From NCBI GenBank assembly GCA_003605035.1, contig QZKJ01000118.1:18304-82303 (forward strand): a stretch of 64,000 bases of DNA, written 5' to 3'. The notes beneath the pieces are model-generated. The model ran no database searches and had not been told where the DNA came from. It worked only from the letters and a program-made list of their open reading frames with translations. The DNA is from Desulfurivibrio sp. (GTDB taxonomy: Bacteria; Desulfobacterota; Desulfobulbia; Desulfobulbales; SURF-16). This document shows positions 1,483-39,161 of this stretch, piece after piece. Position 1 is the stretch's first letter; the number at the start of each line of letters is the position of its first letter. Position numbers and translations under genes: made by a program.

Positions 1483-1510
1483 TTGACAAGAAATTAATTT
1501 TATCTATAAT
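1483..1510 (+). promoter_or_regulatory. sigma70-type promoter for the yceD-rpmF-plsX-fab operon
   Basis: Exact TTGACA (1483-1488), 16-nt spacer, exact TATAAT (1505-1510). It lies about 45 nt upstream of the GTG start at 1556. Confidence 0.6.
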
Positions 1511-1555
1511 TTCTTGTTCCTTTGCCTGCTATATATCCCTTTTGGAGCATGTCTG

Positions 1556-2065
1556 GTGAAGATTGATTTTTATGAGATTCCGGCAGAGGGTTTGGCCCTT
1601 ACCGTTGAGGATGCGCACTGGTTTCCGCCTGATCTTGAACGGCTGGGAAGAGCGGAGGCCTCCCTCAGACTGAAGAGACGCGGGCAGCGTGTGGTGGTTA
1701 CCGGAATACTGTCCGCGACCGTTGTCCTGGCCTGCGACCGTTGTCTGGGCACCTTTCAGCTGCCGCTTGATTCCGAGTTCAGCATAGAGCTGGAGCTCCC
1801 GGCGGAAGGCGTAAGCGAAGTGGAGGAAAAAGACCATTTCTGTCACGATAACGAGATGGATGTGGATATCCTGGACAGCAGTGAAATCAATATTACCGAT
1901 CTCCTGCAGCAGCAGCTCTATCTGGCCATGCCCATGAAAAAACTCTGCTCCGAAGAGTGCCGTGGGATGTGCAGCAGATGCGGGGCAAATCTGAATCATG
2001 AAAAATGTCGATGTCAGCCCGATAATTCTTCACCCTTCAGTGTGTTAGCCAGATTGAAGGGGTGA
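1556..2065 (+). CDS. yceD: YceD/DUF177-family protein (23S rRNA accumulation protein)
   Basis: Conserved position before rpmF, with the C-terminal Cys cluster [23 protein letters not shown] typical of DUF177. The start was moved to the in-frame GTG at 1556 (GGAG 8 nt upstream) because the track start at 1514 abuts the -10 box. Confidence 0.8.
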
Positions 2066-2132: not shown

Positions 2133-2324
2133 ATGGCCTTACCAAAAAGAAGACACTCCCGTTCCCGTACCAGAATCCGTCGCTCCCATGACGGATTGAC
2201 CGCACCCGGTATTTCCACATGCTCTGAATGTGGTGAGCCGAAACTGCCGCATCGGCTCTGTTCCGGCTGCGGTTCCTACAAGGGTCGTAAAGTAATCGAT
2301 CTTGGCGAAGAAGAGATTGACTAG
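2133..2324 (+). CDS. rpmF: 50S ribosomal protein L32
   Basis: [19 protein letters not shown]... plus a CxxC..CxxC zinc ribbon. ATG at 2133 is preceded by GGAGGA. The track start at 2115 is an upstream TTG. Confidence 0.95.
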
Positions 2325-2454: not shown

Positions 2455-3492
2455 GTGCGGATAGCTCTTGATGCCATGGGAAGTGACCGTGGTCCTGCAG
2501 AAATGGTTGCCGGTGCTGCGATGGCTGTCCGTGAGGCTGATGTGCAGATTACCATAGTCGGCAGCGAGGAGCAGATTAAACCCGCTCTGCAGAAAGAGGG
2601 CATCTCGCATCTGGTTGGCTTTGTGCCGACCTCCCAGGTCGTTACCATGCACGATTCACCCATCGAAGCCGTTCGCAAAAAGAAAGACTCTTCTGTTGTC
2701 GTCGCCTTTGAGCTGCTCAAAAAAGGTGAAGTGGATGCAGTGGTCAGCCCCGGCAATTCCGGGGCGGTCATGGCCGCTGCCGTCAAATTTCTCGGCAGGT
2801 TGAAGGATGTCTCACGTCCCGGCATTGCCAGTGTTTTCCCGACGCTGAAAGGGCCGGTTGTGGTCATGGACGTCGGCGCCAATGTTGATTGCCGCCCCAA
2901 GCATCTGCTGCAGTTCGGGGTGATGGCCTCCGCTTTTTCCCGTGTCATGTACGGCATTGAAAGACCCCGGGTCGGCCTGCTCAGTATCGGCGAGGAGGGC
3001 GGCAAGGGCAATGCGCTGGTGAAAAGCGCCCATGCCCTTTTCCAGAACAGCGGGCTCAATTTCATCGGCAATGTCGAGGGGCGCGATACCTTTGTCGGCG
3101 ATGTGGACGTGATTATCTGTGACGGCTTTGTCGGCAATGTCTGCCTGAAGCTCAGCGAAGGGCTGGCTGAAGCGATTTTATCCATGCTGCGGGAAGAAAT
3201 CGGCAAAACCTTCAAGGCGAGGCTGGGATATCTGCTCGCCCGGCAGGCCTTCGGCAATTTCAAGAAACGGGTCGACTATGCCGAATATGGCGGGGCTCCC
3301 CTGCTCGGCTTCAACGGTACGGGGGTTATCTGCCATGGCCGCTCCAATATGGTGGCCATCAAGAATGCCCTGCTGGTGGCAGACGGGCTGGCCAGACATA
3401 ATGTCAATGGCCACATTCTCGAATTGCTGGAAAAGACAGGACCGGCGTTAGCGCAATTCGACGAAAATCAGGTTCCGGCGGGAGCAGCGTAA
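2455..3492 (+). CDS. plsX: phosphate acyltransferase PlsX
   Basis: 345 aa. MRIALDAMGSD N-terminus and canonical position between rpmF and fabH. Confidence 0.95.
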   Translation: MRIALDAMGSDRGPAEMVAGAAMAVREADVQITIVGSEEQIKPALQKEGISHLVGFVPTSQVVTMHDSPIEAVRKKKDSSVVVAFELLKKGEVDAVVSPGNSGAVMAAAVKFLGRLKDVSRPGIASVFPTLKGPVVVMDVGANVDCRPKHLLQFGVMASAFSRVMYGIERPRVGLLSIGEEGGKGNALVKSAHALFQNSGLNFIGNVEGRDTFVGDVDVIICDGFVGNVCLKLSEGLAEAILSMLREEIGKTFKARLGYLLARQAFGNFKKRVDYAEYGGAPLLGFNGTGVICHGRSNMVAIKNALLVADGLARHNVNGHILELLEKTGPALAQFDENQVPAGAA

Positions 3493-4470
3493 ATGAAAAG
3501 AATGATTGTCCTGGGCACTGGTTCATTCCTGCCTGAGCGAGTGCTCTCCAATGCGGACCTGGAGAAAATGGTGGATACCACGGACGAGTGGATCACCACC
3601 AGGACGGGCATAAAAAACAGACGTATTGCCGGCAAGGGAGAAGAGACGTCCAAGCTCGCCTCCAAAGCCGCGGCCAGGGCCCTGGACATGGCCGGGCTGG
3701 CGCCCGGCGACCTCGACATGATTATTGTCGGTACCATCACCCCCGACATGGGCATGCCCTCGTGCGCCTGCCTGGTGCAGAAGGAACTCGGGGCCGCCAA
3801 GGCCTTTGCGCTTGATATCAATGCCGCCTGTTCGGGTTTTGTCTACTGTCTCGATGTTGCTGATAAATATATCAAAGCTGAGCCGGACATGAAAATTCTG
3901 GTGGTCGGCGCCGAGACCCTGTCGGCCCGGGTCAACTGGGAGGACCGCAACACCTGTGTTCTCTTTGGTGATGGAGCCGGGGCCTGCGTGGTGACCGGGA
4001 AGACAGGCAAACGCGGCCTGCTGGCCAGCAAGCTCTTTTCAGACGGCAGCCTCTACAAGCTGCTTTATATGGACAGCGCGCCAAGCATGAACAAGGAACT
4101 GGCCTGCCAGGACAATGACGGTTCCTATATCAAGATGGCCGGCCGGGATGTTTTCAAGTATGCGGTGCGCTCCATGGACATGGCTATCACGAATGTACTC
4201 GAGCAGGTGCAGGTGCCGGTTGAGGACATCAGCCTGATTATTCCCCATCAGGCCAATATCCGCATCCTGAAAAGCCTGGGAGAAAGGCTGGGCATAGCCG
4301 GTGAAAAAGTCTACATAAATCTGGACAAATATGGTAATACATCGGCGGCTAGTATCCCCATCGCCCTGGATGAGGCAAATCGGCTGGGGCATATCAAGTC
4401 CGGCGACCTTGTCCTGCTCTGCGCCTTTGGTGGAGGTTTCACCTGGGGCGCCGCTCTGTTTCGCTGGTAA
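3493..4470 (+). CDS. fabH: 3-oxoacyl-ACP synthase III
   Basis: 325 aa. KAS III motifs: active-site Cys context [19 protein letters not shown] and GGGFTWGA. Confidence 0.95.
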
Positions 4471-4505: not shown

Positions 4506-5660
4506 GTGGATTATTTTTTGACTGAAGAACAGCAGATGATTGTCGATCTCTCCAGGCAGATTGCCGACGAGCTAATCATTCCCCAACGCGCAGCCCTGGA
4601 TGAATCCGAGGATTTTCCGACTGAAATCCTCGACGCTGTTGCCAAGGCGGATCTTTTTGGTATTTATATCCCCGAACAATACGGCGGCATCGGCGCAGGC
4701 ACCTTTGAGATCGTCCTGGCCCTGGAACAGTTCGGTCGCGGCTGCGTCGGTGTGGCAACCGCCTTTGCCGCCAGCGCCCTCGGCGCCTTTCCCATTATGA
4801 TTGCCGGCAGCGAAGAAATGAAACAGAAATATCTGCCGGATATCGCCACGGGCTCGAAAAAGGCCGCTTTTGCCCTCACCGAGGCCAATGCCGGCAGTGA
4901 TGCCTCAGGCATCCAGACCACCGCTGTGCTCGATGGTGATGAGTGGGTGCTGAACGGCACCAAACAGTGGATAACCAACGCCGGTGAAGCCAGGATTTAC
5001 ACGGTGATCGCCATCACCGACCGTTCAAAAGGCCCGCGGGGCGCCTCCATGTTTGTCGTTGAGGACACTGATCCGGGTTTCTCCTACGGGGTCAAGGAAA
5101 AGAAACTGGGCATCCGGGCCTCATCAACCCGGGAGCTCATCTTCAAGGACTGCCGCATTCCCAAAGACCGGCTCATCGGCCGGGAAGGCACCGGTTTTAT
5201 TACCGTCATGAAAACCCTGGATAAGTCCCGGCCGGGCATCGCCATCCTTGGCGTCGGCCTTGGCCAGGCGGCCCTGGATGAGGCCGTCACCTATGCCAAG
5301 CAGCGGGTGCAGTTCGGTAAGCCGATCATCTCTTTTCAGGCCGTGCAGCACATGCTGGCCGACATGGCCATCCAGCTGGAGGCGGCCCGCTCGCTGGTGT
5401 ATGCGGCGGCCAAGCACATTGACGCCCACCCCAGAGACATGTCCAAAGCCTCTTCCATGTGCAAGGTGTTTGCCACTGATATGGCCATGAAGGTCACGGT
5501 TGATGCGGTGCAGGTTCTCGGCGGTTATGGCTACATGCGGGATTACCCGGTGGAAAAGATGATGCGGGACGCCAAAATTCTGCAGATTTATGAAGGAACC
5601 AACCAGATCCAGCGCAACGTGGTTGGTCAGGAACTGAACAAGGAGTACACCAAAGCCTGA
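4506..5660 (+). CDS. acyl-CoA dehydrogenase (butyryl-CoA dehydrogenase-like)
   Basis: 384 aa. ACAD motifs [14 protein letters not shown] and the C-terminal catalytic-base region YEGTNQIQR. The stop overlaps the etfB start. Confidence 0.9.
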
Positions 5661-6439
5661 TGAAGATTATCGTCTGTGTCAAGCAGGTCCCGGACGCCAA
5701 GGATGTCCGTCTGGACCCCAAGACCAATACTCTGTCCAGGGAAGGGGTGCAATCCATCATCAACCCCTATGACCGCCATGCCCTTGAAGAGGCGGTGCGC
5801 CTCAAGGAAAAGCATGGCGGCACGGTGATTGTGCTCACCATGGGGCCGCCCCAGGCCGCGGAGATTCTGCGGGAATCCGTTTCCTGCGGGGCCGACGAGG
5901 CAGTGCTTGTTTCAGACCGGGCCTTTGCCGGGGCCGATACCCTGGCGACCACCTATACCCTGTCCCAGGCCATCAGGAAAATCGGCGGGGCGGATCTTAT
6001 TCTGTGCGGCAAGCAGGCCATCGATGGCGACACCGCCCAGGTCGGGCCCGGGCTGGCCGTGCGCATGGACATTCCCTATGTTACCTGCGTCCGCAGGATC
6101 GCCCAGGTCAATGATAAGAGTTTTGTGGTCGAACGGTTGATGGATGACGGCTATGATGAGGTGGAAGTCGGGCTGCCGGCGCTGTTCACCGTGGTCAAGG
6201 AGATCAATGAACCGCGGCTGCCTTCCCTGAAAGGAAAGATGAAGGCCAAAAAGCTCGCCATCACCACTCTGACCGCCGCGGAAATCGATGCCGATGTCGC
6301 CCAGCTGGGCCTGAAGGGCTCGCCCACCTGGGTGGTCAGGGTTTTTGCCCCCCAGTTGAAGGGTGAGCGCAGCATGATTGCGGGCACGGTACAGGAACAG
6401 GTAGATCAGTTGGCTGAAAAACTGCTGGAATGGTGTTAG
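5660..6439 (+). CDS. etfB: electron transfer flavoprotein beta subunit (bifurcating-type signature)
   Basis: 259 aa. [13 protein letters not shown]-terminus. Carries CGKQAIDGDTAQVGP, the motif I recall from Bcd-associated (FAD-binding) EtfB, in contrast to the DDDCNQTG-type motif of mitochondrial ETF. Confidence 0.9.
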   Translation: MKIIVCVKQVPDAKDVRLDPKTNTLSREGVQSIINPYDRHALEEAVRLKEKHGGTVIVLTMGPPQAAEILRESVSCGADEAVLVSDRAFAGADTLATTYTLSQAIRKIGGADLILCGKQAIDGDTAQVGPGLAVRMDIPYVTCVRRIAQVNDKSFVVERLMDDGYDEVEVGLPALFTVVKEINEPRLPSLKGKMKAKKLAITTLTAAEIDADVAQLGLKGSPTWVVRVFAPQLKGERSMIAGTVQEQVDQLAEKLLEWC

Positions 6440-6443
6440 CTTT

Positions 6444-7643
6444 ATGTTGCTGATAGATATTGATGCCTGTATCGGCTGCGGACTCTGCGAGGCCAATTGC
6501 GCCTTTGATGCAATTCACGTGGTTGACGGGATTGCCGAGGTAAACGAAAACTGCACCCTGTGCGGCGGTTGCGTGGATGTCTGTGAAGCCGGCGCCCTGA
6601 AGATCGAGGGCAGGGAGCGCGAAGAAAAAGATGGACTGGCCGCCTGGTCCGGCATCTGGGTGTACGCCGAGTGCCGCCACGGCAGAGTCGCGCCGGTGAC
6701 CTTTGAGTTGCTCGGCGCCGGTCGCAGACTGGCCGACCTGAAGAAGGTGCCACTGTCCGCCGTGCTGCTCACCGACCAGGCGGGCGATATCCCGGCCTTG
6801 CTTATTTCCTATGGCGCGGACCAGGTCTATGTGGTCGAGGATCAGGCCCTGGCCGATTTTACCGATGAGGCTTACGGCAACGCCCTGGAGGACCTGGCCC
6901 GCCAGTACCGGCCGGAGGTGATTCTGGCCGGCGCCACGGCCATCGGTCGCTCCTTTATTCCCAGGGTGGCGACCTCGCTGAAAACAGGTCTCACCGCCGA
7001 CTGCACCCAGCTCGATATCCAGCCGGAAGACGGCGCCCTGCTGCAGACCAGACCCGCCTTTGGCGGCAACATCATGGCCACCATCGCCTGCCCCAACACC
7101 CGTCCGCAGATGGCCACCGTGCGGCCGCTGGTGATGAAGGCCCTGGCCGCTGATCCTGCCCGCACCGGCGCGGTGATCAACTGCCGTATCGCCCCGGAGC
7201 GGCTTCAGTCCCGGGTGAAGGTGCGCAACTTTGTCGCCCTGGAAGGAGACCAGGTCAATCTTAACGAGGCGGATATTGTGGTCTCAGGGGGACGCGGTCT
7301 GGAAGGGGAAAAGGGCTTTGCCCTGATTGCGGAGCTGGCGCACCTGCTCGACGGGGCGGTGGCTGCCTCCAGGGCCGCGGTTGACAGCGGCTGGATCCCC
7401 TATCCCCATCAGGTGGGGCAGACCGGTAAAACCGTCAGCCCCAAGGTCTATATTGCCTGTGGCATTTCCGGGGCCATCCAGCATCTGGTGGGCATGCAGT
7501 CAGCCGATACCATTATCGCCATCAACCGTGACCCGCATGCTCCCATTTTTGACGTGGCAACCTACGGGGTGGTCGGCGATGTTTTTGAAATTCTGCCGAA
7601 ACTGATTGAAAAAATCAAACAGGCCCGTACATCATCAATCTGA
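6444..7643 (+). CDS. etfA: electron transfer flavoprotein alpha subunit with N-terminal 2x[4Fe-4S] ferredoxin domain
   Basis: 399 aa. Two CxxCxxCxxxC motifs ([22 protein letters not shown]) are fused to an EtfA/FixB core ([21 protein letters not shown]). Confidence 0.9.
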
Positions 7644-7662: not shown

Positions 7663-8409
7663 ATGAGCTTGGACGGAAAAATAGCGGTCGTCACCGGAGG
7701 AAGCCGCGGCATAGGCAAGGCTGTCTGCCTTCGTCTTGCCGGCCTGGGCGCCACTGTGGTAGTCAATTATGTCAGCCGGCCCGATGCGGCGGAAGCAACG
7801 GTGGCGGCCATCAAGGATGCTGGCGGTCAGGCAGCGGCGTATCAGTTCAACGTGGCTGATGCCCTTCAGGTGCAGGCCGCCTTTAAAAAGATACTGGCCG
7901 ATTTCGGCCGGGTTGATATACTGGTCAACAATGCGGGGATAACCCGCGACGGCCTCATTGCCATGATGAAGGAACAGGCCTGGGATGAGGTGCTTGACAC
8001 CAACCTCAAAGGCGCCTTCAATTGCATCAAGGCGGCCAGCCGCCCGATGATGAAGCAGCGCTGGGGACGGATTGTCTCGATCACCTCGGTGATCGGTTTT
8101 GCCGGCAATGCCGGGCAGGCCAACTATGCGGCGGCCAAGGCGGGGATGGTGGGGCTGACCCGTTCGGTGGCCAAGGAACTGGCATCCCGCGGGGTGACGG
8201 TCAATGGTGTGGCGCCCGGTTATATTGATACCGATATGACCAGGGAGCTTGCAGAAGAGGTAACGGAAAAAATCAAAGCGGAAATCCCCATGAATTCTCT
8301 CGGGACTGTTGAAGATGTGGCTGCTGCCGTGGCGTATCTGGCTTCAGAGGAGGCCCGTTATGTCACCGGCCAGTTTATCCATGTTAATGGCGGCATGTTC
8401 ATGGGCTGA
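7663..8409 (+). CDS. fabG: 3-oxoacyl-ACP reductase
   Basis: SDR motifs: MSLDGKIAVVTGGSRGIGKA, NNAGI, YAAAKAG. ATG at 7663 was chosen over the upstream track start at 7606, which overlaps etfA. Confidence 0.95.
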   Translation: MSLDGKIAVVTGGSRGIGKAVCLRLAGLGATVVVNYVSRPDAAEATVAAIKDAGGQAAAYQFNVADALQVQAAFKKILADFGRVDILVNNAGITRDGLIAMMKEQAWDEVLDTNLKGAFNCIKAASRPMMKQRWGRIVSITSVIGFAGNAGQANYAAAKAGMVGLTRSVAKELASRGVTVNGVAPGYIDTDMTRELAEEVTEKIKAEIPMNSLGTVEDVAAAVAYLASEEARYVTGQFIHVNGGMFMG

Positions 8410-8490
8410 AAAACAAAAAAGAGTGTATGCAGACCGCTGCTGTCCTGTCGGGCAGTATGATGGGTTATAAGGAAAAAGAAGGAGAAAAAC

Positions 8491-8721
8491 ATGTCTAAAG
8501 AAGAAAAACTTATTGATATCATTGTTGAGCAGCTCAGTGTAGACAAAGCAAAAGTTGTGCCAGCCGCCTCTTTCGTTGATGATCTCGGGGCAGATTCTCT
8601 GGACCTGGTCGAGTTGATCATGGCAATGGAAGAGGCTTTCGATACCGAGATCCCTGATGATGTGGCGGAAAAGATCACCACTGTTCAGCATGCGATCGAT
8701 CACATTAACTCCTTGAAATAA
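8491..8721 (+). CDS. acpP: acyl carrier protein
   Basis: 76 aa with the phosphopantetheine site [18 protein letters not shown]. Confidence 0.97.
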
Positions 8722-8810
8722 ATGCCTGTATCGCGTTTGCGGCTCTCCGTAAACGCTGATATGCGCTGCTGTTTCAGGTATTGTAATATCTCAAGCTTTC
8801 GAGGTTGCGA

Positions 8811-10052
8811 ATGGCGAGAAGAGTAGTCGTTACCGGTGTCGGGCTTGTTACCCCCTTAGGTACCGGAAATGAAAAGACATGGGATGGCATCTGTGCCGGC
8901 AGGAGCGGGGTCGCCTTGATAACCCGTTTTGATACGGCAGACCATGGAGTAAAAATTGCCGCCGAGGTCAAGGATTTTGTGGCCGAGGATTATATCGAGG
9001 CCAAAACCGCTAAACACCTGGATCTCTTTGTGCAGTATGCTGTGGCTGCGGCAGAGTTGGCCTTTACTGATTCAGGCCTGACGGTTACGGAGGAAAATGC
9101 CGCCCGGGTCGGGGTCATTACCGGCTGCGGCCTCGGGGGGCTGTCCACCATTGAGAAGTATCATCAGGTCTGCATGGAGCGGGGGCCGAAACGCATCACC
9201 CCTTTTTTTATTCCCATGGTCATACCCAACATGGGCGCCGGCCAGATCTCCATCGTCAAAAAGCTCAAGGGACCGAATCTGTCAGTAACCACCGCCTGCG
9301 CGGCCGGCACCCATGCGGTGGGCGAGGCCTTCCGGTTGGTGAGTTCAGGGGTCTGCGACGCGGCCGTAACCGGTGGCAGCGAATCGGTCATCTGCCCCCT
9401 GGCGGTTGGCGGCTTCAATGCCATGAAGGCCCTGTCCAGAAATAATGATTTTCCGGAGAAAGCCTCCCGCCCCTTTGACCGGGACCGCGACGGTTTCATC
9501 ATCGCCGAGGGCGCCGGCATTCTCATCCTGGAGGAGCTTGAACACGCCAGGGCCAGGGGCGCCCGCATCTATGCGGAAATGGCTGGTTACGGACTTTCCG
9601 GCGACGGCTTCCACATGGCTGCCCCGCCTGAAGACGGCGACGGCGCCATCCGCTGCATGAAGATGGCGCTGGCCGATGCCGGCATGAATGTTGACGAGAT
9701 TGACTATATCAATGCCCACGGCACCTCCACCCCTTTAAACGATGTGGTGGAGACCCGGGCCATCAAGAGCGTCTATGGCGACCACGCCAGAAAGCTCGCC
9801 ATCAGTTCCACCAAATCCATGACCGGCCACATGCTGGGCGGGGCAGGGGGAATTGAATCCGTTTTTACGGCCCTGGCCATTCATCATCAGCTTGCTCCTC
9901 CCACGGCAAATCTGGAACATCCGGATGAGGAATGCGATCTTGATTATATACCGGGCAGTGCGCGGGAGATGAAAATCCGGGCGGCCATGTCCAATTCCTT
10001 CGGATTCGGCGGCACCAACGCCGTCATCATCATGAAACGTTTTGAGGGATAG
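8811..10052 (+). CDS. fabF: 3-oxoacyl-ACP synthase II
   Basis: KAS II: RRVVVTGVG N-terminus, TACAAGTHA active-site Cys, NAHGTSTP, GFGGTNA. ATG at 8811 (the track lists TTG at 8805). Confidence 0.95.
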   Translation: MARRVVVTGVGLVTPLGTGNEKTWDGICAGRSGVALITRFDTADHGVKIAAEVKDFVAEDYIEAKTAKHLDLFVQYAVAAAELAFTDSGLTVTEENAARVGVITGCGLGGLSTIEKYHQVCMERGPKRITPFFIPMVIPNMGAGQISIVKKLKGPNLSVTTACAAGTHAVGEAFRLVSSGVCDAAVTGGSESVICPLAVGGFNAMKALSRNNDFPEKASRPFDRDRDGFIIAEGAGILILEELEHARARGARIYAEMAGYGLSGDGFHMAAPPEDGDGAIRCMKMALADAGMNVDEIDYINAHGTSTPLNDVVETRAIKSVYGDHARKLAISSTKSMTGHMLGGAGGIESVFTALAIHHQLAPPTANLEHPDEECDLDYIPGSAREMKIRAAMSNSFGFGGTNAVIIMKRFEG

Positions 10053-10054
10053 CG

Positions 10055-10483
10055 GTGAAGATAGCCATCGGATGTGATCACGGCGGTATTGCTTTGAAAG
10101 AGGTCATTCTGCCTCTGCTGGCGGAACTCGGACACCAGGTGAATGACCAGGGGACCGACTCAACCCTGTCGGTTGATTATCCCCAATACGCCAAAGCCGT
10201 CTGTGATCTGGTGGCGGACAACCGCTGCGACCGCGGCATTCTGATCTGCGGCACCGGTATCGGCATGTCCATGGCGGCCAACCGCCATAAAAAGATCCGG
10301 GCCGCCCTGTGCACGGAGATGTTTGCGGCCCGCATGAGCCGGGAGCACAATAACGCCAATGTGCTCTGTCTCGGGGCCAGGGTAACGGGGCCGGGGCTGG
10401 CCGAGGAAATTGTCCGCACCTGGCTCAGCACCGACTTTGCCGGAGACCGCCATCTGCGCCGTATTGAAATGTTTTCATCCTGA
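10055..10483 (+). CDS. rpiB: ribose-5-phosphate isomerase B
   Basis: 142 aa. MKIAIGCDHGG and ILICGTGIGMSMAANR, typical of RpiB/LacAB. Confidence 0.9.
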   Translation: MKIAIGCDHGGIALKEVILPLLAELGHQVNDQGTDSTLSVDYPQYAKAVCDLVADNRCDRGILICGTGIGMSMAANRHKKIRAALCTEMFAARMSREHNNANVLCLGARVTGPGLAEEIVRTWLSTDFAGDRHLRRIEMFSS

Positions 10484-10544
10484 ACCTGTTTAGGTCGCAG
10501 AAGTGACGCTGTATCGGTAAAATAAATCAATTTAAAGAGTATTT

Positions 10545-11801
10545 ATGTCAGCATTAAAACAGACAGACCCGGCGGTTTATCGCGCCATCCGCTATGAACT
10601 GGAGCGCCAGACCAACCAGCTGGAGCTGATCGCCTCGGAAAATATCGTCAGCATGGCGGTGCTTGAGGCCCAGGGTTCCATCTTCACCAACAAATACGCG
10701 GAAGGCTATCCGAGCAAGCGATACTATGGCGGCTGCGAGTATGCCGACGAGATTGAGTCGCTGGCCATCGACAGGGCCAAGGAGATCTTCGGGGCGGAGT
10801 ATGCCAATGTGCAGCCCCATTCCGGCAGCCAGGCCAATATGGCAGTCTATTTTGCCAGCTTGAAGCCGGGCGACAAGGTGCTGGGCATGGACCTGGCCCA
10901 CGGCGGCCATCTGACCCACGGCAGCGGGGTCAATTTCTCCGGACAACTGTATGATTTCGTCTCCTACGGGGTCAGGCAGGATACCGGCCAGATCGATATG
11001 GAAGCGGTGGAGCGCATTGCCCTGGCGGAAAGACCGAAGATGATCGTGGCCGGGGCCAGCGCCTATCCCAGGTTGATTGACTTTGCGGCCTTCCGCCATA
11101 TTGCCGATAAGATCGACGCCCTGTTCATGGTGGATATGGCCCATATCGCCGGTCTGGTCGCCGCCGGGGTGCACCCTTCACCGGTGCCCCATGCCCATTT
11201 TGTCACCACCACCACCCACAAGACCATGCGCGGCCCGCGGGGCGGCATGATCCTGGCCAAGGGTGAGTTTGACAAGAGGCTGAACAGTAAAATATTCCCG
11301 GGCATCCAGGGCGGACCACTGGTGCACGTGATTGCGGCCAAGGCGGTGAGCTTCAAGGAGGCCATGACCGAGGAGTTCAGGATCTATCAGGAGCAGGTGG
11401 TGAAAAATGCCAGGGCTCTGGCGGAAAACCTGCAGCAATTCAGCTTCCGGCTGGTGTCGGGCGGCACGGATAACCATCTGATGCTGGTCGACCTGACCAA
11501 CAAGGATATCACCGGCAAACTTGCCGAGGAGGTGCTGGAGGACGCCGGGCTGACGGTCAATAAGAATGCCATCCCCTTTGATACCCAGAGCCGTTTCGTC
11601 ACCAGCGGCATCCGCATCGGCACCCCGTCGGTGACCACCCGGGGCCTGCAGGAGCCGGAAATGGCCAAAATCGCCGAGTGGATCAACCGAGCTATCAGCA
11701 ACCGCGACAACAAGGAGACGCTCGCCGCCATCCGGCTTGAGGTTCGGATGCTCTGCGATCAGTTCCCCCTCTATCCGGACTTAGTGCGCGACGATGACTG
11801 A
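10545..11801 (+). CDS. glyA: serine hydroxymethyltransferase
   Basis: 418 aa. [10 protein letters not shown] and the PLP-lysine region [15 protein letters not shown]. Confidence 0.97.
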
Positions 11802-12267: not shown

Positions 12268-12374
12268 GGAGCGCCTTGGAAAAAAAGGAGTATCGTTCCC
12301 CCTGCACTGGCCACGGAGAGGCGTTTCTCTCTTTGTGGCCTTTGTTCCATTCAAGAATGATTGCTGGCTGAAAA

Positions 12375-12854
12375 ATGAAATGCCCTTACTGTGGCCATCT
12401 TGAAAACAAGGTGGTTGACTCCCGCCTCAATAAAGACTACACCATCACCCGTCGCCGGCGTCTGTGCGATTCCTGCGGCCGCCGTTTCACCACCTATGAG
12501 CGGCTGGAGGTGACCATGCCCATGCTCATCAAGAAAGATGACCGCCGGGAAGCCTGGGACCGTTCCAAGGTGGTGGCCGGCCTGAAAAAGGCGTGTGAAA
12601 AGAGGCCGGTGAGCATGACCCAGATCGAGGAATTTGTCGATAACCTGGAAAGGGAACTGCAGGACATGGGGGAACGGGAGATTCCGGTGCGGATTGTCGG
12701 GGCGCGGGTGATGGACGCCCTGCGCAATATTGACGAGGTGGCCTATGTCCGTTTTGCCTCGGTTTACCGGCAGTTCAAGGATCTCAATGAGTTCATGGAG
12801 GAATTGAAGGGTTTGCTCGGCGCCCGGGAAGATGAAAAGAATGAAGGATCCTGA
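12375..12854 (+). CDS. nrdR: transcriptional repressor NrdR
   Basis: MKCPYCGH...[12 protein letters not shown] zinc ribbon followed by an ATP-cone. Confidence 0.95.
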
Positions 12855-13980
12855 CCTGGTCTTCATGAGCATGGCCCTGCGGGAGGCCCGCAAGGGCCTG
12901 GGCCGGACCTCCCCCAATCCCGCGGTTGGTTCGGTGGTGGTGCAGCAAGGCAGGGTGATCGGCAAAGGCTATCACCGCAAGGCAGGCACCCCCCATGCCG
13001 AGATCCACGCCCTGCGGGCGGCCGGGGAAAAAGCCCGGGGCGCGACCCTGTACGTCACCCTGGAACCATGCAACCACACCGGCCGCACCCCGCCCTGCAC
13101 CCGGGCCATCCTGGCAGCCGGCATCAGAAGGGTGGTGGCCGGCATGCTTGACCCCAATCCGCTGGTGGCCGGTTCCGGCTGCGCCTTTCTGCAGGACAAT
13201 GGCATTGAGGTGAGAACCGGGGTGCTGGCCGACGCCTGCCGGGAGCTGAATTATCCGTTCATCAAGCATATTACCACCGGCCTGCCCTGGGTGATCATGA
13301 AGGCAGGCTGTAGTCTGGACGGCCGGATTGCCGCGGCAGACGGGCAGAGCAGCTGGATTACCTGCGCCAAATCACGGGCCGAGGTGCACCGCCTCCGCGA
13401 CCGGGTGGACGCCATTCTGATCGGCGCGGGTACGGCCCTGACCGACGACCCTTCCCTCACCACCAGATTACCGGGGAAAAGGGGTAAAGATCCCGTGCGG
13501 GTGTTGCTGGACAGCAGGCTCCGCCTGACCCCGGCCGCCCTGATGCTTACCCAGCAGTCCCCGGCGCCCACCTGGATTTTCTGCTCCCGCCAGGCCGGGC
13601 AGGCCAGGGCTGAGGCCCTGGAAAAGGCGGGGGCGAAAATCATCCGGGTGGACAGCGGCCGGGACGGTCTGGATCTGCGGCAGGTGCTGCGGTTTTTAGG
13701 CGATGCCCAGCTGAACAGCGTACTGGTGGAGGGCGGCAGCCAGGTGCATGGCTCCTTTCTGCGGGCCGGGCTGGTGGATCAGGTCTGCCTTTTTCTGGCC
13801 CCGCTTTTTCTGGGCGGCGACGCGGTGCCGGTGGTTGACGGTCTGCGGCTGGCCGGGGTGCAGGAGGGCAAGCGCTTTGTCACCCGCCGCATCAGACGTT
13901 TTGATGACGATGTGCTGATTGACGGACTGTTTACCACCATGCAGGAGACGGGCGGCAAACAGCTGAACGTGACCATTTAA
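12832..13980 (+). CDS. ribD: bifunctional diaminohydroxyphosphoribosylaminopyrimidine deaminase / 5-amino-6-(5-phosphoribosylamino)uracil reductase
   Basis: 382 aa. Deaminase motifs HAEIHAL and [13 protein letters not shown], with a C-terminal reductase domain. Sits in a rib operon. Confidence 0.93.
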
Positions 13981-14003
13981 CGGGAAAAACCTTACGCAAG
14001 AAC

Positions 14004-14663
14004 ATGTTTACCGGAATTATTCAGGGGAAAGGCAAACTCATCGAAAAAAGGCCCGCCGGCGGCGGCATGGTTTTCGGGGTGGAGGCGGATTTTGCCCTCA
14101 CCGAGCCACAGGAGGGTGAATCCATTGCCTGCAACGGCGTCTGTCTGACCGCCAAGAAGATCAGCGGCCGGCGTTTTGAGGTGGATGTGTCGCCGGAAAG
14201 CCTGTCCCGCACCAATCTCGGCAGCATCGCCGTCGGCATGCAGCTGAATCTCGAGCGGGCCCTGCGCTTAAGCGACCGGCTGGGCGGCCACCTGGTCAGC
14301 GGCCACGTGGATGCCACCACGCCGATAGTGGAAAGAAAGCCGGAGGGTGATTTCGTGCGGTTTCATTTTGCCGTACCGCAAGGACTGGGCCGCTATATTA
14401 TTGAGAAGGGCTCCATCACCATCAATGGCATCAGCCTCACGGTGAACGCTTGTGATGACCGCACCTTTTCCGTGGCCATCATCCCCCATACCCTGCAGGT
14501 CACCACCCTGGGCCTGCTGAAACAGGGGGACCTGGTGAACATCGAGGTGGACCTGATCGGTAAATACGTGGAAAAGCTGCTGCAGGTTAAGGAGAATGGC
14601 GAAAAAAACCAGGGGTCGCGCATCAATCCGGCTTTTCTGGCGGAGCATGGTTTTTTGAAGTAA
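14004..14663 (+). CDS. ribE: riboflavin synthase (alpha chain)
   Basis: MFTGIIQGKG N-terminus and duplicated lumazine-binding repeats (ACNGVCLT / INGISLTV). Confidence 0.93.
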   Translation: MFTGIIQGKGKLIEKRPAGGGMVFGVEADFALTEPQEGESIACNGVCLTAKKISGRRFEVDVSPESLSRTNLGSIAVGMQLNLERALRLSDRLGGHLVSGHVDATTPIVERKPEGDFVRFHFAVPQGLGRYIIEKGSITINGISLTVNACDDRTFSVAIIPHTLQVTTLGLLKQGDLVNIEVDLIGKYVEKLLQVKENGEKNQGSRINPAFLAEHGFLK

Positions 14664-14835
14664 TACGCTGAACGGTATAAGGGGCGGCCGTAACCAGATG
14701 AATGGTTATTCCGCAACGGCCCTTATGCCGTTTACAGCATTACGCTGTTACCGTTATTTTTGAACAAGGGCTTACAGTACCCCTAAATTTACACTTTTAT
14801 TTATTCCTATTTCAGATCCGGCCCGGCCGGATCAG

Positions 14836-16068
14836 GTGAAGAACATGCCGGTAAGCAGTATAGAAGAGGTAATCGAAGACATCAGGGCAGGGAAGATGAT
14901 CATCCTGGTTGATGATGAGGACAGGGAAAATGAAGGCGACCTGTGCATGGCCGCCCAGATGGCCACCCCGGAGGCCATCAACTTCATGGCCACCCATGGC
15001 AGGGGCTTGATCTGTCTGACCCTGACCCCGGAGCATCTTGAGCGGCTGAAACTGCCCATGATGGTGCAGAACAACCAGTCGCCGTATCAGACCGCCTTTA
15101 CCGTGAGCATCGAGGCGCGGCAGGGCGTGACCACCGGCATCTCCGCCGCCGACCGGGCCAGGACCATCCAGGCGGCGGTGGCCCCTGATGTCAAACCCGA
15201 GGACCTGGTCAGCCCGGGCCATGTGTTCCCCCTGCGGGCGCGCCGGGGCGGGGTGCTGGTGCGCACCGGCCAGACCGAAGGTTCGGTTGATCTGGCCAGG
15301 CTGGCCGGCCTTTCCCCGTCCGGGGTCATCTGCGAGATCATGAAAAACGACGGCACCATGGCCAGGATGCCGGACCTGCAGATCTTTGCCAGAGAGCATG
15401 GCCTGAAGATCGCCACCATCGCCGATCTGGTCGCCTACCGCATGAAGATGGACAAGCTGGTCCACCGGGCCGCGGAGACCAAACTGCCCACCCGCTATGG
15501 CGGAGAATTCAAGGCCGTGGTATACACCAATGATGTGGATGACTATGAGCACCTGGCCCTGATCAAGGGCGACATCAGCGCGGACAAGGGGGTGCTGGTG
15601 CGGGTTCATTCCGAATGCCTGACCGGTGATGTTTTCGGTTCCATGCGCTGCGACTGCGGCGGCCAGCTGCAGGCGGCCATGCGCATGGTCAACCGGGAGG
15701 GTTGCGGCGTCATCCTCTATATGCACCAGGAGGGCCGGGGAATCGGGCTGGCCAATAAGATCAAGGCCTATGCCCTGCAGGATAAGGGGATGGATACGGT
15801 GGAGGCCAATCTGAAACTTGGCTTCAAGGCCGATCTGCGCGATTACGGCATCGGCGCCCAGATCCTGCGGGATATCGGGGTCAGGAAGATGAAACTGATG
15901 ACCAACAATCCCAAAAAGATCGTCGGACTCGAGGGATACGGGCTGGAGGTGGTGGACCGGGTGAAGATCGAGACCAATCCGGTGCCGGAAAACCTGGGCT
16001 ATCTGCGTTGTAAAAAGGATAAAATGGGCCATCTTCTTGAGCTGAACGGTTCGGAAGAGGTAGACTGA
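14836..16068 (+). CDS. ribBA: bifunctional 3,4-dihydroxy-2-butanone-4-phosphate synthase / GTP cyclohydrolase II
   Basis: 410 aa. DHBP synthase motif [11 protein letters not shown] and GCH II motif [21 protein letters not shown]. An alternative ATG lies at 14845. Confidence 0.95.
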
Positions 16069-16088
16069 AAAAAAATTGGAGTTCGGTA

Positions 16089-16556
16089 ATGGCAAAATAT
16101 TTTGAAGGAAATTTCCAGGCTGAAGGGAAAAAAATCGGCATCGTGCTGGCCCGTTTCAACTCATTTATCGCGGAACGTCTGCTGGAGGGTGCCCTGGACA
16201 CCCTGCTCCGATTCGGCGCCACTGACGATGACATCGAGGTGGCCAGGGTGCCGGGCGCTTTTGAAATACCCCTGGTGGCCCAGAAAATGGCCCGATCCGG
16301 ACGCTATGACGCGGTGATCTGTCTAGGCGCCGTCATCCGCGGGGCGACCCCGCATTTTGATTTCGTGGCAAACGAGGCGGCCAAAGGGATTGCCCAGGCC
16401 AGCATGGAGAGCGGGGTGCCGATCATCTTTGGCGTACTCACCACCGACACCATCGAACAGGCCATTGAGCGGGCCGGGTCCAAGGCCGGCAATAAAGGTT
16501 CCGAGTGCGCCGCCGCTGCCATCGAGATGGTTAACCTGTTAAAAAGCCTCCTATGA
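16089..16556 (+). CDS. ribH: 6,7-dimethyl-8-ribityllumazine synthase
   Basis: 155 aa. [33 protein letters not shown]. Confidence 0.95.
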
Positions 16557-16960
16557 GCATCCGTCGCAAATCACGGGAACTCGCCCTGCAATGTCTCTAT
16601 CAGCTTGATCAGTGCGGCGGCCAGCAGACTGATATTGCCCGTATGGGCGAACATTTTGATGTGAACAAGAAGGCGGTTCCCTATGCCCAGGAGCTGATCA
16701 GCGGCATTCAGCTGCAGTGGGATGCCATCAACAGCATGATCGAGCTGCACGCCAAGAACTGGCGGCTCAGCCGGATGGCGGTGATTGACCGCAATATCCT
16801 CCGCATTGCCAGCTTTGAGCTGGCCCATATGCCTGATGTCCCTTCGTCCGTGATTCTCAACGAGGCCATTGAGATTGCCAAGCGTTTCAGCACCGATGAT
16901 GCCGCCCCCTTCATCAACGGCATACTCGACTCCATCTGCCGCAGTGTCAGGAAGGAATAG
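16553..16960 (+). CDS. nusB: transcription antitermination factor NusB
   Basis: 135 aa. [15 protein letters not shown]-terminus. Canonical ribH-nusB linkage with a 4-nt overlap. Confidence 0.93.
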
Positions 16961-25828: not shown

Positions 25829-26917
25829 TTATCCTCCGAAGCAGATGCCGATTTCCCGGGCGGTCTGCACCTTGTCGCTGTCCAGCGGCACCTTTTTGCG
25901 ACTTTTGATGGCATCGGCCAGGGGAACGGCGCTCATCTGGTCGCCTGCCAGGGCCACCATCTGATCAAAATTCTCTTTTTCGGCCAGACGAACCGCCGTG
26001 GCGCCGAAGCGCAGGGCCAGCAGCCGGTCAAAGGTGGTCGGCGAGCCGCCCCGCTGCAGATGGCCGAGGACCAGGGAGCGGGTGTCCTTGCCCGTCCGCT
26101 TGTTGATCTCCTTAGCCACCCATTCGCCGATGCCTCCCAGCACCTTCTCCGACCGGCCGATCTCGCCGACGCCCTTGTAAATGGTTTCCTGATCAATGGC
26201 CCTTGCCCCTTCCGCCACCACCACGATATCGTAATGCTTGTCCAGCAGCTCGTTGTCATTGATCTTTTCACAGACGATATCAAGATCAAAGGGGATTTCC
26301 GGAATGAGGATGACATCCGCCCCGCCGGAGATGCCGGAATTCAGGGCGATCCAGCCGGAATCACGGCCCATGACCTCAACCACCATCACCCGGTCGTGGG
26401 ATTTGGCGGTGGAGTGGAGTTTGTCCAGGGCCTCGGTGGCGGTGGATACCGCGGTGTCAAAACCAAAGGTCAACTGGGTTGCCAGCAGATCGTTGTCAAT
26501 GGTTTTCGGCACGCCGATGACCGGCATGCCTTTTTCCACGGCAAAGCGATGGGCGATCTCCAGGCTGCCGTCGCCGCCGACCGCAATGTGACAGGAAAAA
26601 TTCATACGCAGGAAATTTCTCATGATCCGGTCGGAAACGTCGCGGATCTGGATCTCGCCGGCCAGGTTTTCAATAGGCATGGCAAAGGGGTTGCCCTTGT
26701 TGGTTGAACCAAGGATCGTTCCTCCGGTAGGGGTGATATCCGCCACATCCTCGGGCCGCAATCGCACCAGTTGGTCCTTGTCCAGCAAACCCAGATAGCC
26801 CTGGCGACTGCCGTAAACCTCCCACCCCCGGGAATTAGACGCCATGACCACTGCATAGATGACCGCATTCAGGCCTGGAGCATCGCCACCACCGGTTGAT
26901 ATAACAATTTTTTTCAT
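25829..26917 (-). CDS. pfkA: ATP-dependent 6-phosphofructokinase
   Basis: 362 aa. STGGGDAPGLNAVI, GGDGS, VPKTIDND, VEVMGRDSG. Confidence 0.9.
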   Translation of the reverse strand: MKKIVISTGGGDAPGLNAVIYAVVMASNSRGWEVYGSRQGYLGLLDKDQLVRLRPEDVADITPTGGTILGSTNKGNPFAMPIENLAGEIQIRDVSDRIMRNFLRMNFSCHIAVGGDGSLEIAHRFAVEKGMPVIGVPKTIDNDLLATQLTFGFDTAVSTATEALDKLHSTAKSHDRVMVVEVMGRDSGWIALNSGISGGADVILIPEIPFDLDIVCEKINDNELLDKHYDIVVVAEGARAIDQETIYKGVGEIGRSEKVLGGIGEWVAKEINKRTGKDTRSLVLGHLQRGGSPTTFDRLLALRFGATAVRLAEKENFDQMVALAGDQMSAVPLADAIKSRKKVPLDSDKVQTAREIGICFGG

Positions 26918-30578: not shown

Positions 30579-31877
30579 ATGGTGCCCATGCAGCCGACCC
30601 ATCTTGATTTTGCCATAGACCATCTCGGCCCCCGGGAGCGGATTTCCCCCATCAACAACATTGACTTTGTCGATGATCGGGAAAGGGTTCTCTATCATAC
30701 CGACCCGGCCCTGGTGGAGGATTGTCGGCGTCGTAACGAGATCCCTCCCTCCTTCGAGGTGGCCGGTCCCCGGCGGCAGATCTTTTTTGATCCGGCTGAC
30801 CTGCATTGCGGCATTGTCAGCTGCGGCGGACTGTGTCCCGGCATCAACGATGTCATCCGCGCCATGGTGCTGAGCCTGTTTTACCACTACGGGGTGACCA
30901 GCATCTGCGGTTTCCGTTACGGCTTCGAGGGGCTGAATCCCGCGTTCGGTCATTCCCCCCTGGAACTTTCGCCGGAGCTGGTCAATGACATCCACCAGAA
31001 AGGCGGCACCATTCTGGGCACCTCCAGGGGACCGCAGGATATCAGCGTCCTGGTGGACACCCTGGAGCGGCGGGGGATCGGCATACTGTTCACCATCGGC
31101 GGCGACGGCACCCTGCGCGGCAGCCGGGCCATTGCCGCTGAAATCAAGCGCCGTGGTCTGCAGATAGCCGTAGTCGGGGTGCCCAAGACTATCGATAATG
31201 ATATCGCCTTTGTGGACCAGTCCTTTGGCTTTGCCACCGCGGTCACCGAAACCAGGACGGCGGTCTACGCGGCGCATATGGAAGCGGTGGGAGCCCGCAA
31301 CGGCATCGGCCTGGTCAAATTGATGGGACGTCAATCCGGCTTCATTGCCGCCTATGCGACCCTGGCCAGCAGTGATGTCAACTTCTGCCTGGTGCCCGAG
31401 ATCCGTTTCACCACCGCGGCGTTTCTGGAGGCCCTGCGGGAACGTCTCGTCAGCAAGCGGCACGCAGTGATCGTGGCGGCGGAGGGGGCAGGCCAGGATC
31501 TGATGGAGGCCACCGGCCAGCGCGACGCCTCCGGCAATATCCGGCTCGGCGACATCGGCACCTTCCTGCGCCAGGCCATCCAGGAGCATTTCAGCTCGAT
31601 AGGCCTGGAATACACCCTGAAATACATTGATCCCAGCTACACCATCCGCAGTGTGCGGTCCAACGCCTATGACTCGGTGTTCTGTCTGCTGCTGGGGCAT
31701 AATGCGGTGCACGCCGGCATGGCAGGTTACACCAACATGCTGGTGGGCTACTGGAAAAACCAGTTTACCCATGTGCCGATCTCGCTGGCCGTCTCCCGGC
31801 GTAAAAAGATCGAGCCCGGCGACCGGTTGTGGAACAATGTCCTGGCGGCCACGGGGCAGCCGGCCGCCATGTACTGA
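30579..31877 (+). CDS. 6-phosphofructokinase, long-form paralogue (GGDG-type, likely ATP-dependent)
   Basis: 432 aa. SCGGLCPGINDVIRA, TIGGDGTLRGS, VGVPKTIDNDI, KLMGRQSGFIA. An alternative ATG at 30588 has better SD spacing (AAAGGA 8 nt upstream). Confidence 0.88.
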   Translation: MVPMQPTHLDFAIDHLGPRERISPINNIDFVDDRERVLYHTDPALVEDCRRRNEIPPSFEVAGPRRQIFFDPADLHCGIVSCGGLCPGINDVIRAMVLSLFYHYGVTSICGFRYGFEGLNPAFGHSPLELSPELVNDIHQKGGTILGTSRGPQDISVLVDTLERRGIGILFTIGGDGTLRGSRAIAAEIKRRGLQIAVVGVPKTIDNDIAFVDQSFGFATAVTETRTAVYAAHMEAVGARNGIGLVKLMGRQSGFIAAYATLASSDVNFCLVPEIRFTTAAFLEALRERLVSKRHAVIVAAEGAGQDLMEATGQRDASGNIRLGDIGTFLRQAIQEHFSSIGLEYTLKYIDPSYTIRSVRSNAYDSVFCLLLGHNAVHAGMAGYTNMLVGYWKNQFTHVPISLAVSRRKKIEPGDRLWNNVLAATGQPAAMY

Positions 31878-31956
31878 AACGTTGTAGCGTCCGAACGTTC
31901 CAGCGTTTCAGTGATCAAACGTTTGAACGTTGCAACGTTACACCGTTTGAACCTTT
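31877..31956. repeat. tandem array of ~10 units of an 8-bp repeat (core AACGTT)
   Basis: AAACGTTG TAGCGTCC GAACGTTC CAGCGTTT CAGTGATC AAACGTTT GAACGTTG CAACGTTA CACCGTTT GAACCTTT. The array fills the whole convergent spacer between the pfk stop and the malQ stop. Confidence 0.85.
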
Positions 31957-33857: not shown

Positions 33858-33858
33858 G

Positions 33859-33929
33859 AACCCAATAACCCAACCAACCCAACCAACCCAATCAACCCAA
33901 TTAACCCAATCAACCCAATCAACCCAACC
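33859..33929 (-). repeat. tandem array of ~8 units of a 9-bp repeat (plus strand AACCCAAYC; mRNA strand TTGGGTTGR) spanning the glgB stop to the malQ start
   Basis: AACCCAAT AACCCAACC AACCCAACC AACCCAATC AACCCAATT AACCCAATC AACCCAATC AACCCAACC CCCCC. The glgB stop codon (33919-33921) lies inside the array, and the malQ ATG (33857) is 2 nt from its end. Confidence 0.9.

Positions 33930-35817: not shown

Positions 35818-39161
<3,344 letters not shown>

Follow-up and report, generated by a model that had tools for sequence, protein, structure and literature searches.

A bifurcating-type acyl-CoA dehydrogenase-Etf module in the fatty-acid synthesis operon of Desulfobulbales, a candidate enoyl-ACP reductase

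Results

The locus

The stretch of DNA analysed here, called the window, comprises 64,000 nucleotides of contig QZKJ01000118.1 (assembly GCA_003605035.1) from Desulfurivibrio sp., a member of the Desulfobulbales. It carries a type II fatty-acid synthesis (FAS II) operon that includes three additional genes, one for a protein of the acyl-CoA dehydrogenase (ACAD) family and two, etfB and etfA, for the small and large subunits of an electron-transferring flavoprotein (Etf). We call these three genes the module and discuss it below as a candidate reductase (ENR) for enoyl-ACP, where ACP is the acyl carrier protein. The order on one strand is yceD-rpmF-plsX-fabH-[ACAD-etfB-etfA]-fabG-acpP-fabF. Positions follow the numbering of the window, and all the operon genes listed here are on the + strand.

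1483..1510, + strand: sigma-70-type promoter-like site, TTGACA-16 nt-TATAAT, 12/12 match, just 5' of yceD
1553..2065, + strand: yceD, first gene of the cluster (Pfam YceD, 4.7e-29; gene call)
2133..2324, + strand: rpmF, ribosomal protein L32 (TIGR01031, 88.7 bits against a cut-off of 22.6)
2455..3492, + strand: plsX, phosphate acyltransferase (TIGR00182, 344 bits against a cut-off of 243)
3493..4470, + strand: fabH (NF006829, 429 bits against a cut-off of 249; TIGR00747, 412 against 292)
4506..5660, + strand: ACAD gene, 384 amino acids, proposed enoyl-thioester reductase subunit (three ACAD Pfam domains)
5660..6439, + strand: etfB, 259 amino acids, bifurcating-type small Etf subunit predicted to bind flavin adenine dinucleotide (FAD) (PDB matches, motif)
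6444..7643, + strand: etfA, 399 amino acids, large Etf subunit with an N-terminal 2x[4Fe-4S] ferredoxin domain (CarE match)
7663..8409, + strand: fabG, 3-oxoacyl-ACP reductase (TIGR01830, 331.7 bits against a cut-off of 297.75)
8491..8721, + strand: acpP, acyl carrier protein (NF002149, 112 bits against 106; TIGR00517, 104.8 against 70)
8811..10052, + strand: fabF (TIGR03150, 633.9 bits against a cut-off of 493.75)
12309..12340, + strand: predicted terminator-like hairpin with a 13-bp stem, 3' of rpiB, glyA and a deaminase gene

PlsX, FabH, FabG, AcpP and FabF all score above NCBIfam equivalog or subfamily cut-offs. An earlier note on this DNA, made from the letters alone, had described this gene order with tight junctions, and the coordinates bear it out. 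The ACAD gene begins 35 nt after fabH with a GTG start that has GAGGAG 7 nt 5' of it; it shares 1 nt with etfB (TGATG, a gap of -1), etfB and etfA are 4 nt apart (6440-6443), and fabG follows etfA after 19 nt. We took the fabG start to be the ATG at 7663, which has AGGA ahead of it; the mechanical open reading frame begins at 7606, an unlikely start.

The note had also placed a single consensus sigma-70 promoter ahead of the operon. The site at 1483-1510 is the only 12/12 consensus match in the 14.8 kb scanned, where by a hand estimate about 0.005 would be expected by chance in random sequence, and it is the predicted promoter. The hairpin at 12309-12340 is the sole strong terminator-like hairpin on the + strand of the same 14.8 kb. 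The number of weak hairpins in the module (21) is not in excess of what shuffling predicts (15.2 +/- 4.6).

The ACAD subunit and its substrate pocket

The ACAD protein matches PF02771, PF02770 and PF00441. Its catalytic glutamate, E363 in the motif IYEGT, is invariant in 81 sequences. Among solved structures its best match is the butyryl-CoA dehydrogenase (Bcd) of C. difficile (5OL2_C, 403.6 bits), with CarC ninth at 320 bits. None of the three module products rises above any NCBIfam cut-off, and the best NCBIfam score of the ACAD is 418.2 bits to AcrC, which has a cut-off of 640. In Pfam the module proteins match ACAD, ETF and Fer4 families only, with neither the Tyr-x6-Lys motif of the short-chain dehydrogenase/reductase (SDR) family nor an NMO/TIM-barrel fold.

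Alignment of helix E separates this protein from the true Bcds. Both 5OL2_C and 4L1F_A hold one residue more there than the window ACAD, whose helix E has the length of that in medium-chain acyl-CoA dehydrogenase (MCAD) and aligns with it without gaps; the human MCAD sequence used was checked against 1EGE. The position of MCAD Gln95 is A84 in the window protein (among the 81 sequences 48 have Ala, 32 Gly and one Ser), and that of Glu99 is A88 (77 Ala, 4 Ser). ACADs of the sister clade described below have Ala or Ser at the first position and Ala at the second. We take Gln95 and Glu99 to form the floor of the acyl pocket in MCAD, where small residues would deepen or lengthen the cavity; the structural work on these pocket residues is reportedly that of Kim et al. 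1993 for MCAD and of McAndrew et al. 2008 for the very-long-chain enzyme (VLCAD, Gly175/Gly178). As the extra helix-E residue is missing and the pocket-floor residues are small, the ACAD may accept long chains. The pocket thus suggests long-chain substrates and points away from a plain crotonyl-CoA reductase. We rejected membership of the protein among the Bcds as such, since helix-E length, pocket residues and gene context all differ.

The Etf subunits

The earlier note had read the motif DGDTAQVGP in EtfB as the mark of a bifurcating type, and had recognised in EtfA an additional 2x[4Fe-4S] domain like that of CarE. Both readings are upheld by the comparison with solved structures. EtfB has the stretch KQAIDGDTAQVGPGLA at amino acids 118-133, with DGDTAQVGP at 122-130, and the motif is invariant in 76 EtfB orthologues. 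Each of its five top-scoring PDB matches is a subunit of a bifurcating complex (CarD at 256 bits, 7KOE_A, 4KPU_B from A. fermentans, LctB, and 5OL2_B at 209), while AMP-binding respiratory ETF-beta proteins reach at most 101 bits.

EtfA has as its best PDB match CarE (6FAH_A, 405.7 bits), aligned over amino acids 7-392 and so including the ferredoxin domain; AMP-type ETFs reach at most 172 bits. The ferredoxin domain spans about amino acids 1-60 (nucleotides 6444-6623), with Fer4 Pfam families matched at amino acids 2-60. It contains eight cysteines in two CxxCxxCxxxC motifs, C9/C12/C15/C19 and C37/C40/C43/C47. R203 aligns with Arg203 of CarE and, like the eight cysteines, is invariant in 72 orthologues. 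For the roles of the beta-FAD, the eight-cysteine domain and CarE Arg203 we follow PMC5861303.

Taken over CarD/CarE, the Etfs of A. fermentans and C. difficile, LctBC and 7KOE, the scores of EtfB and EtfA run from 209 to 406 bits. These matches support assignment of the Etf to the group-2 (FAD/FAD) bifurcating type with a CarE-like EtfA. On the same sequence matches, the module as a whole appears to pair a Bcd/CarC-like reductase with a CarDE-like, bifurcating-type Etf.

Conservation in the Desulfobulbales

We scanned one genome per species with the ACAD, analysed the best 80 loci and compared 12 genes across them. All 80 loci belong to the Desulfobulbales, and in all 80 the order plsX-fabH-ACAD-etfB-etfA-fabG-acpP-fabF is kept on one strand with short gaps. 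The metagenome-assembled genomes (MAGs) among them fall in Desulfobulbus, Desulfocapsa, Desulfopila, Desulforhopalus, Desulfurivibrio and Ca. Electrothrix; the cultured members include Desulfogranum marinum, Desulfoprunum benzoelyticum and Hydrosulfovibrio ferrireducens. A few of the contigs are labelled Myxococcota or Promethearchaeota and are probably mis-binned. The median gap is 24 nt between fabH and the ACAD gene and about -10 nt, extrapolated from tblastn, between etfA and fabG. This constancy led us to reject the idea that the linkage to FAS genes is an oddity of one MAG.

The ACAD heads the 12 genes in conservation, with a median identity of 79.9% to the window protein. Among the others are AcpP (77.6%), GlyA (76.3%), RpmF (73.3%), FabF (71.3%), EtfB (69.7%), FabG (68.0%), EtfA (63.7%), FabH (62.3%) and PlsX (62.0%). 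With this rank, which points to purifying selection, the ACAD behaves as a core gene and not as a passenger. Public annotations name it 'acyl-CoA dehydrogenase', 'butyryl-CoA dehydrogenase' or 'AidB-like acyl-CoA dehydrogenase'.

The closest relatives of the window are MAGs labelled Desulfobulbaceae, Thermodesulfobacteriota, Proteobacteria and delta proteobacterium. One near-identical contig (L001, GCA_049325115.1) shares 97% protein identity in EtfA and 94% in FabG, with a 1-nt indel before fabG; the window extends about 13.6 kb beyond the end of that contig.

Two loci carry inserts within the module. At L078:9492-11400 and L081:12039-13182, 1.2-2 kb with small antitoxin-like and PIN/VapC-like open reading frames lie between etfB and etfA, both of which are otherwise intact. 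The hosts are near the cable bacteria, and one is labelled Ca. Electrothrix marina.

A sister clade in other phyla

A search of 50%-identity representatives returned no full-length ACAD more than 53% identical outside the clade. The sister clade was reached through ACAD fragments 65-67% identical, one of which (P0177) served as query. Its ACADs are 65-69% identical to that of the window and occur in other phyla. The loci, together with those of a Nitrospirota order considered in the Discussion, are arranged as follows.

L084 and L086, two unclassified assemblies: yceD-rpmF-plsX-fabH-ACAD-etfB-etfA-fabD-(unknown)-fabG-acpP-fabF-rnc
L087, Ca. Schekmanbacteria MAG: plsX-fabH-[toxin-antitoxin pair]-ACAD-etfB
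L088, 555-kb metagenome contig: mdh-ndk-ACAD-etfB-etfA-fabD, with no further fab gene within 8 kb
L082, L083, L089, L090 and L091, Thermodesulfovibrionales: ACAD at 10001-11158 or 8001-9161, in the order hpt-PTPS-pmbA-ACAD, beside cytochrome bd-like oxidase genes

The EtfBs of L084, L086, L087 and L088 all have the DGDTAQVGP motif. The eight cysteines are present in the three complete EtfAs of the clade (L084, L086, L088); the L087 contig stops before etfA. As in the Desulfobulbales, the ACAD is the most conserved protein, at 65-69% against 55-58% for FabF and 49-52% for FabH. The strongest evidence for a functional link between the module and FAS II is that the association recurs in varied arrangements and lineages.

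Some of these loci have features of their own. The pair between fabH and the ACAD gene at L087:7122-7987 is of the nucleotidyltransferase/HepT type and is a second toxin-antitoxin insertion in the operon. The protein between fabD and fabG (L084:14525-15799, 424 amino acids; L086:12100-13584, 494 amino acids) has no Pfam match; it begins with an N-terminal membrane helix followed by the stretch 'KAFYIAQAGLKK' and is PilX/pseudopilin-like in appearance. Right after ACAD-etfB-etfA-fabD in L088 (12210-16223) is a set of four genes similar to those of a soluble NAD(P)-linked [NiFe] hydrogenase, with matches to Fer4_22, FAD/NAD-binding, Oxidored_q6 and NiFeSe_Hases.

fabD and canonical enoyl-ACP reductases

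The earlier note saw no open reading frame for FabD or an enoyl-ACP reductase in the window, and our Pfam and tblastn searches agree. Of the 38 window open reading frames scanned with Pfam, none matched the Acyl_transf_1 (FabD), NMO (FabK) or FabV families or an enoyl-ACP reductase, and FabG is the sole SDR-family match among them. Using E. coli FabI, FabD and FabZ together with FabK and FabV as tblastn queries, all five entered by hand, against the window and all loci returned only FabD in L072 and weak cross-matches of FabI to FabG. By these two methods there is no canonical ENR within the window or about 1.5 Mb of related flanks, the regions to which the search was limited. The operon has a gene for every step of the elongation cycle but two, enoyl reduction and dehydration (FabZ).

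We rejected the note's further suggestion, that the module sits in place of fabD. In L084, L086 and L088 fabD adjoins the module, and in the Desulfobulbales it is found elsewhere, in an ileS-lspA-fabD context: L072 has it about 2 kb upstream of its operon (L072:1603-5995), and in the complete genome of Desulfocapsa sulfexigens the order is ileS-lspA-fabD-bioB-bioA-bioF-bioG-bioC-bioD (L092:6672-16585). The Desulfobulbales FabD is 33% identical to that of E. coli, and the FabDs of the sister-clade operons (L084, L086, L088) are 46-49% identical to the E. coli protein. Since the sister clade has the module between fabH and fabD, the module is better described as an insertion next to fabD, and the most economical history is an ancestral order fabH-ACAD-etfBA-fabD-fabG from which fabD was lost or relocated in the Desulfobulbales. 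In firmicute fab operons, fabK sits immediately upstream of fabD.

Other features of the window

After rpiB-glyA-deaminase-nrdR come the riboflavin genes ribD, ribE, ribBA and ribH, and then nusB (12832-16960, + strand). That flavin synthesis genes adjoin an operon for a predicted three-FAD complex is probably coincidence. An alpha-glucan cluster at 31956-44469 (- strand) encodes a 4-alpha-glucanotransferase, a GlgB-like branching enzyme, a GlgE-type maltosyltransferase, an isoamylase-like enzyme and an 1115-aa alpha-amylase/maltokinase fusion (TreS-Mak-like). Two phosphofructokinase genes lie near it, at 25829-26917 (- strand) and 30579-31877 (+ strand).

The region 53372-58489 (+ strand) encodes a 905-aa protein of the molybdopterin aldehyde-oxidase/xanthine-dehydrogenase family with a fused [2Fe-2S] domain and, next to it, a 766-aa protein with a DPD-domain-II 4Fe-4S region, a dicluster ferredoxin and an HdrD-like CCG domain. 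Four open reading frames on the - strand have no Pfam match at E <= 1e-5: 41509-42204 (231 amino acids), 48213-49385 (390), 50120-51667 (515) and 62585-63844 (419).

Discussion

Proposed function

Enoyl reduction is the pace-setting and strongly exergonic step of bacterial fatty-acid synthesis. As enoyl reduction and dehydration are the sole elongation steps without a gene in the operon, we regard an ENR as the best explanation of the module, and put the chances that ACAD-EtfBA is an NADH- and ferredoxin-coupled enoyl-ACP reductase for FAS II at about even. A stronger version, in which it is the housekeeping ENR of the Desulfobulbales, the cable bacteria included, and of several anaerobic lineages, with canonical FabI, FabK, FabL and FabV absent or dispensable, seems to us possible, although doubtful. 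From sequence and gene context we infer complex formation, cofactors, reaction direction, the ACP carrier, bifurcation and physiological role.

The proteins would form a cytoplasmic complex like Bcd-EtfAB or CarCDE, made of an ACAD-family flavoprotein and a group-2 EtfAB with two [4Fe-4S] clusters on the large subunit. NADH would reduce the bifurcating FAD of EtfB. One electron would then move uphill, leaving by the fused ferredoxin domain for ferredoxin or flavodoxin, and the other downhill through the FAD of EtfA to that of the ACAD. After two such rounds a trans-2-enoyl thioester would be reduced by the ACAD to its saturated counterpart, an acyl thioester, giving the overall reaction 2 NADH + enoyl thioester + 2 Fd(ox) -> 2 NAD+ + acyl thioester + 2 Fd(red), where Fd is ferredoxin.

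We propose the trans-2-enoyl intermediates of FAS II as substrates, because the module lies inside the FAS II operon and is inherited together with it; most probably these would be enoyl-ACPs of C4 to C16-18. We favour the reductive direction because Bcd-EtfAB, with crotonyl-CoA as substrate, has a standard free energy of about -40 kJ/mol, in a reaction that PMC5861303 calls 'essentially irreversible in vivo'. The complex would serve as the main or a second enoyl-ACP reductase and keep part of the step's large free energy as reduced ferredoxin.

Several observations weigh against this interpretation. In the Thermodesulfovibrionales (Nitrospirota) an ACAD orthologue, 65-69% identical, sits beside pmbA as a solitary gene, and neither etf nor fab genes occur within 8-10 kb of it; this arrangement is also that of the complete genome of Dissulfurispira thermophila and shows that the link to FAS II is not universal. 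The window ACAD is nearest to acyl-CoA enzymes, with Bcd at 403.6 bits, and not to ACADs that act on ACP or peptidyl carrier protein (PCP). Carrier-protein-dependent ACADs in the PDB score low against it (4IRN 187.7 bits, 6AF6 155.9), as does MbtN (NF037942, 67 bits). Since ACP specificity arose several times, sequence distance does not settle the choice between ACP and CoA. The pocket argument, suggestive as it is, concerns two aligned positions. In Proteobacteria fabI is usually unlinked to the fab operon, so the missing fabI in the window says little. A figure legend in Rattray et al. 2009 (PMC2649909) gives Desulfotalea psychrophila, also of the Desulfobulbales, a FabI in an unrelated cluster, by a loose BLAST criterion (a minimum of 20% identity across 70% or more of the length). 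Should this be a genuine FabI, the module would be at most a second ENR in Desulfotalea.

Other explanations

One possibility is that the module is a second or specialised FAS reductase, acting on a special unsaturated or branched intermediate or under particular conditions, beside a canonical ENR encoded elsewhere. Many bacteria have two ENRs with split roles. An example is reportedly the FabI/FabK pair of E. faecalis (PMC9671860), and such a role would fit both the FabI homologue reported for Desulfotalea (PMC2649909) and the conserved linkage to FAS genes. Against it, very high conservation and presence in 80 of 80 loci fit a core function better, and the neighbouring genes hint at no special substrate. 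We consider it unlikely. The same linkage would be expected if the ACAD worked in the oxidative direction, in the manner of FabX, oxidising C8-C10 acyl-ACP to trans-2-enoyl-ACP and perhaps isomerising it to the cis-3 form, which FabF would elongate to monounsaturates while the Etf took up the electrons. Desulfobulbales lipids are rich in monounsaturated acids, ACADs can have enoyl isomerase side activity, and no fabA/fabB/fabM-like gene was seen within the operon. H. pylori FabX is reported to be a [4Fe-4S] flavoenzyme that dehydrogenates and isomerises decanoyl-ACP (PMC8626469). FabX, though, is of another family (FabK/NMO-like), the Etf here is of an NADH-oxidising, bifurcating type, and the small residues at the pocket floor (A/G and A/S) are not tuned to stop at C10. 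The reverse of the Bcd-EtfAB reaction, at about +40 kJ/mol, would be essentially precluded in vivo (PMC5861303). A FabX-like role is therefore quite improbable.

The two remaining explanations place the module outside the elongation cycle. It could be an ordinary Bcd-EtfAB, reducing short enoyl-CoAs such as crotonyl-CoA to provide FabH with primers (butyryl-CoA) or to balance NADH and ferredoxin. The solved homologue that matches the ACAD best is C. difficile Bcd, many orthologues are named 'butyryl-CoA dehydrogenase' by JGI, and the ACAD gene lies directly 3' of fabH, whose product uses acyl-CoA primers. Set against this are the missing helix-E residue and the small residues at the Gln95 and Glu99 positions of MCAD. 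Genes for thiolase, 3-hydroxybutyryl-CoA dehydrogenase and crotonase were not found in the window or conserved flanks, and primer supply offers no obvious reason for the ACAD to be the most conserved gene of the operon. We judge this explanation very improbable. Least credible to us, with hardly any probability, is a catabolic ACAD and Etf, for beta-oxidation or another degradation, hitch-hiking in the operon. ACAD and Etf families are chiefly catabolic, and the Nitrospirota orthologue does without FAS linkage; but the placement between fabH and fabG or fabD, with gaps of -1 to 35 nt, is shared by 80 or more species and a minimum of two further lineages. The Etf belongs to the bifurcating and not the respiratory AMP type, and the neighbourhood holds neither EtfQO/FixCX nor any other genes of beta-oxidation.

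Significance

To our knowledge, enoyl reduction in FAS II has been described only for SDR-type (FabI, FabL, FabV) and flavin mononucleotide (FMN)-type (FabK) enzymes. A full-text literature search found no description of an ACAD/Etf-based ENR, of etf genes in a fab operon or of a fabH-etf cluster. A 2022 review of ENRs (PMC9260719) lists FabI, FabK, FabL, FabV and FabI-like classes and mentions no ACAD/Etf-based one. By its sequence, then, this is a bifurcating-type ACAD-Etf module in an unprecedented and conserved biosynthetic context.

If the module is an ENR, it would represent a mechanistically new class, Bcd/CarC-like, bifurcating and insensitive to FabI-directed inhibitors, and the first case of flavin-based electron bifurcation within core anabolism. 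Each double bond would cost 2 NADH and return reduced ferredoxin, so that membrane-lipid synthesis would itself conserve energy. Energy-limited sulfate reducers, sulfur disproportionators and cable bacteria could in this way regain low-potential electrons in the course of lipid synthesis. Lipid hydrogen would also have a different hydride source, which bears on the 2H/1H signatures of sulfate-reducer lipids. Even as a second reductase, the tight link across several phyla between a bifurcating-type Etf module and fabH, fabD and fabG is an unannotated feature that is directly testable.

Comparison with known systems

The module resembles Bcd-EtfAB in its three-protein make-up, in the catalytic glutamate within YEGT and in an FAD-type EtfB with DGDTAQVGP. 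It differs in the N-terminal 2x[4Fe-4S] domain that its EtfA adds, in an ACAD without the additional helix-E residue and with Ala/Gly and Ala/Ser at the pocket floor, and in lying within a FAS II operon rather than with thl, hbd and crt, none of which is present in the window or in L001. CarCDE, the caffeyl-CoA reductase of Acetobacterium woodii (6FAH), provides the best solved matches of EtfB and EtfA in CarD and CarE. By score, however, the ACAD is not orthologous to CarC, which at 320 bits ranks below Bcd and seven other ACADs, and the neighbours of the module are fab genes and not genes for caffeate activation, pointing to lipid synthesis instead of caffeate respiration.

Acryloyl-CoA reductase, the AcrABC system of the Clostridium propionicum type, gives the top NCBIfam score for both the ACAD (AcrC, 418.2 bits) and EtfA (AcrA, 347.8 bits). 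For EtfB, AcrB comes second at 246.6 bits, after NF040731 at 314.6. The scores to AcrC, AcrB and AcrA (NF042972, NF042971 and NF042970) are far under the respective cut-offs of 640, 475 and 600. AcrA, moreover, has no match to the ferredoxin domain of EtfA, its best stretch covering amino acids 196-393 only.

With FabK, FabI, FabL and FabV the module would share its proposed reaction, from trans-2-enoyl-ACP to acyl-ACP, and in the sister clade it lies directly upstream of fabD, as fabK does in firmicute fab operons. Its fold and cofactors are unrelated to theirs (an ACAD fold with an Etf, a predicted three FAD and two [4Fe-4S] clusters, and the proposed use of 2 NADH and ferredoxin), and it is at best a functional analogue of these enzymes. 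FabX of H. pylori (PMC8626469) is reportedly a precedent for a flavin/Fe-S enzyme that interconverts acyl-ACP and enoyl-ACP in FAS II. It differs from the module in being a single, FabK/NMO-like polypeptide that works in the oxidative direction with no Etf.

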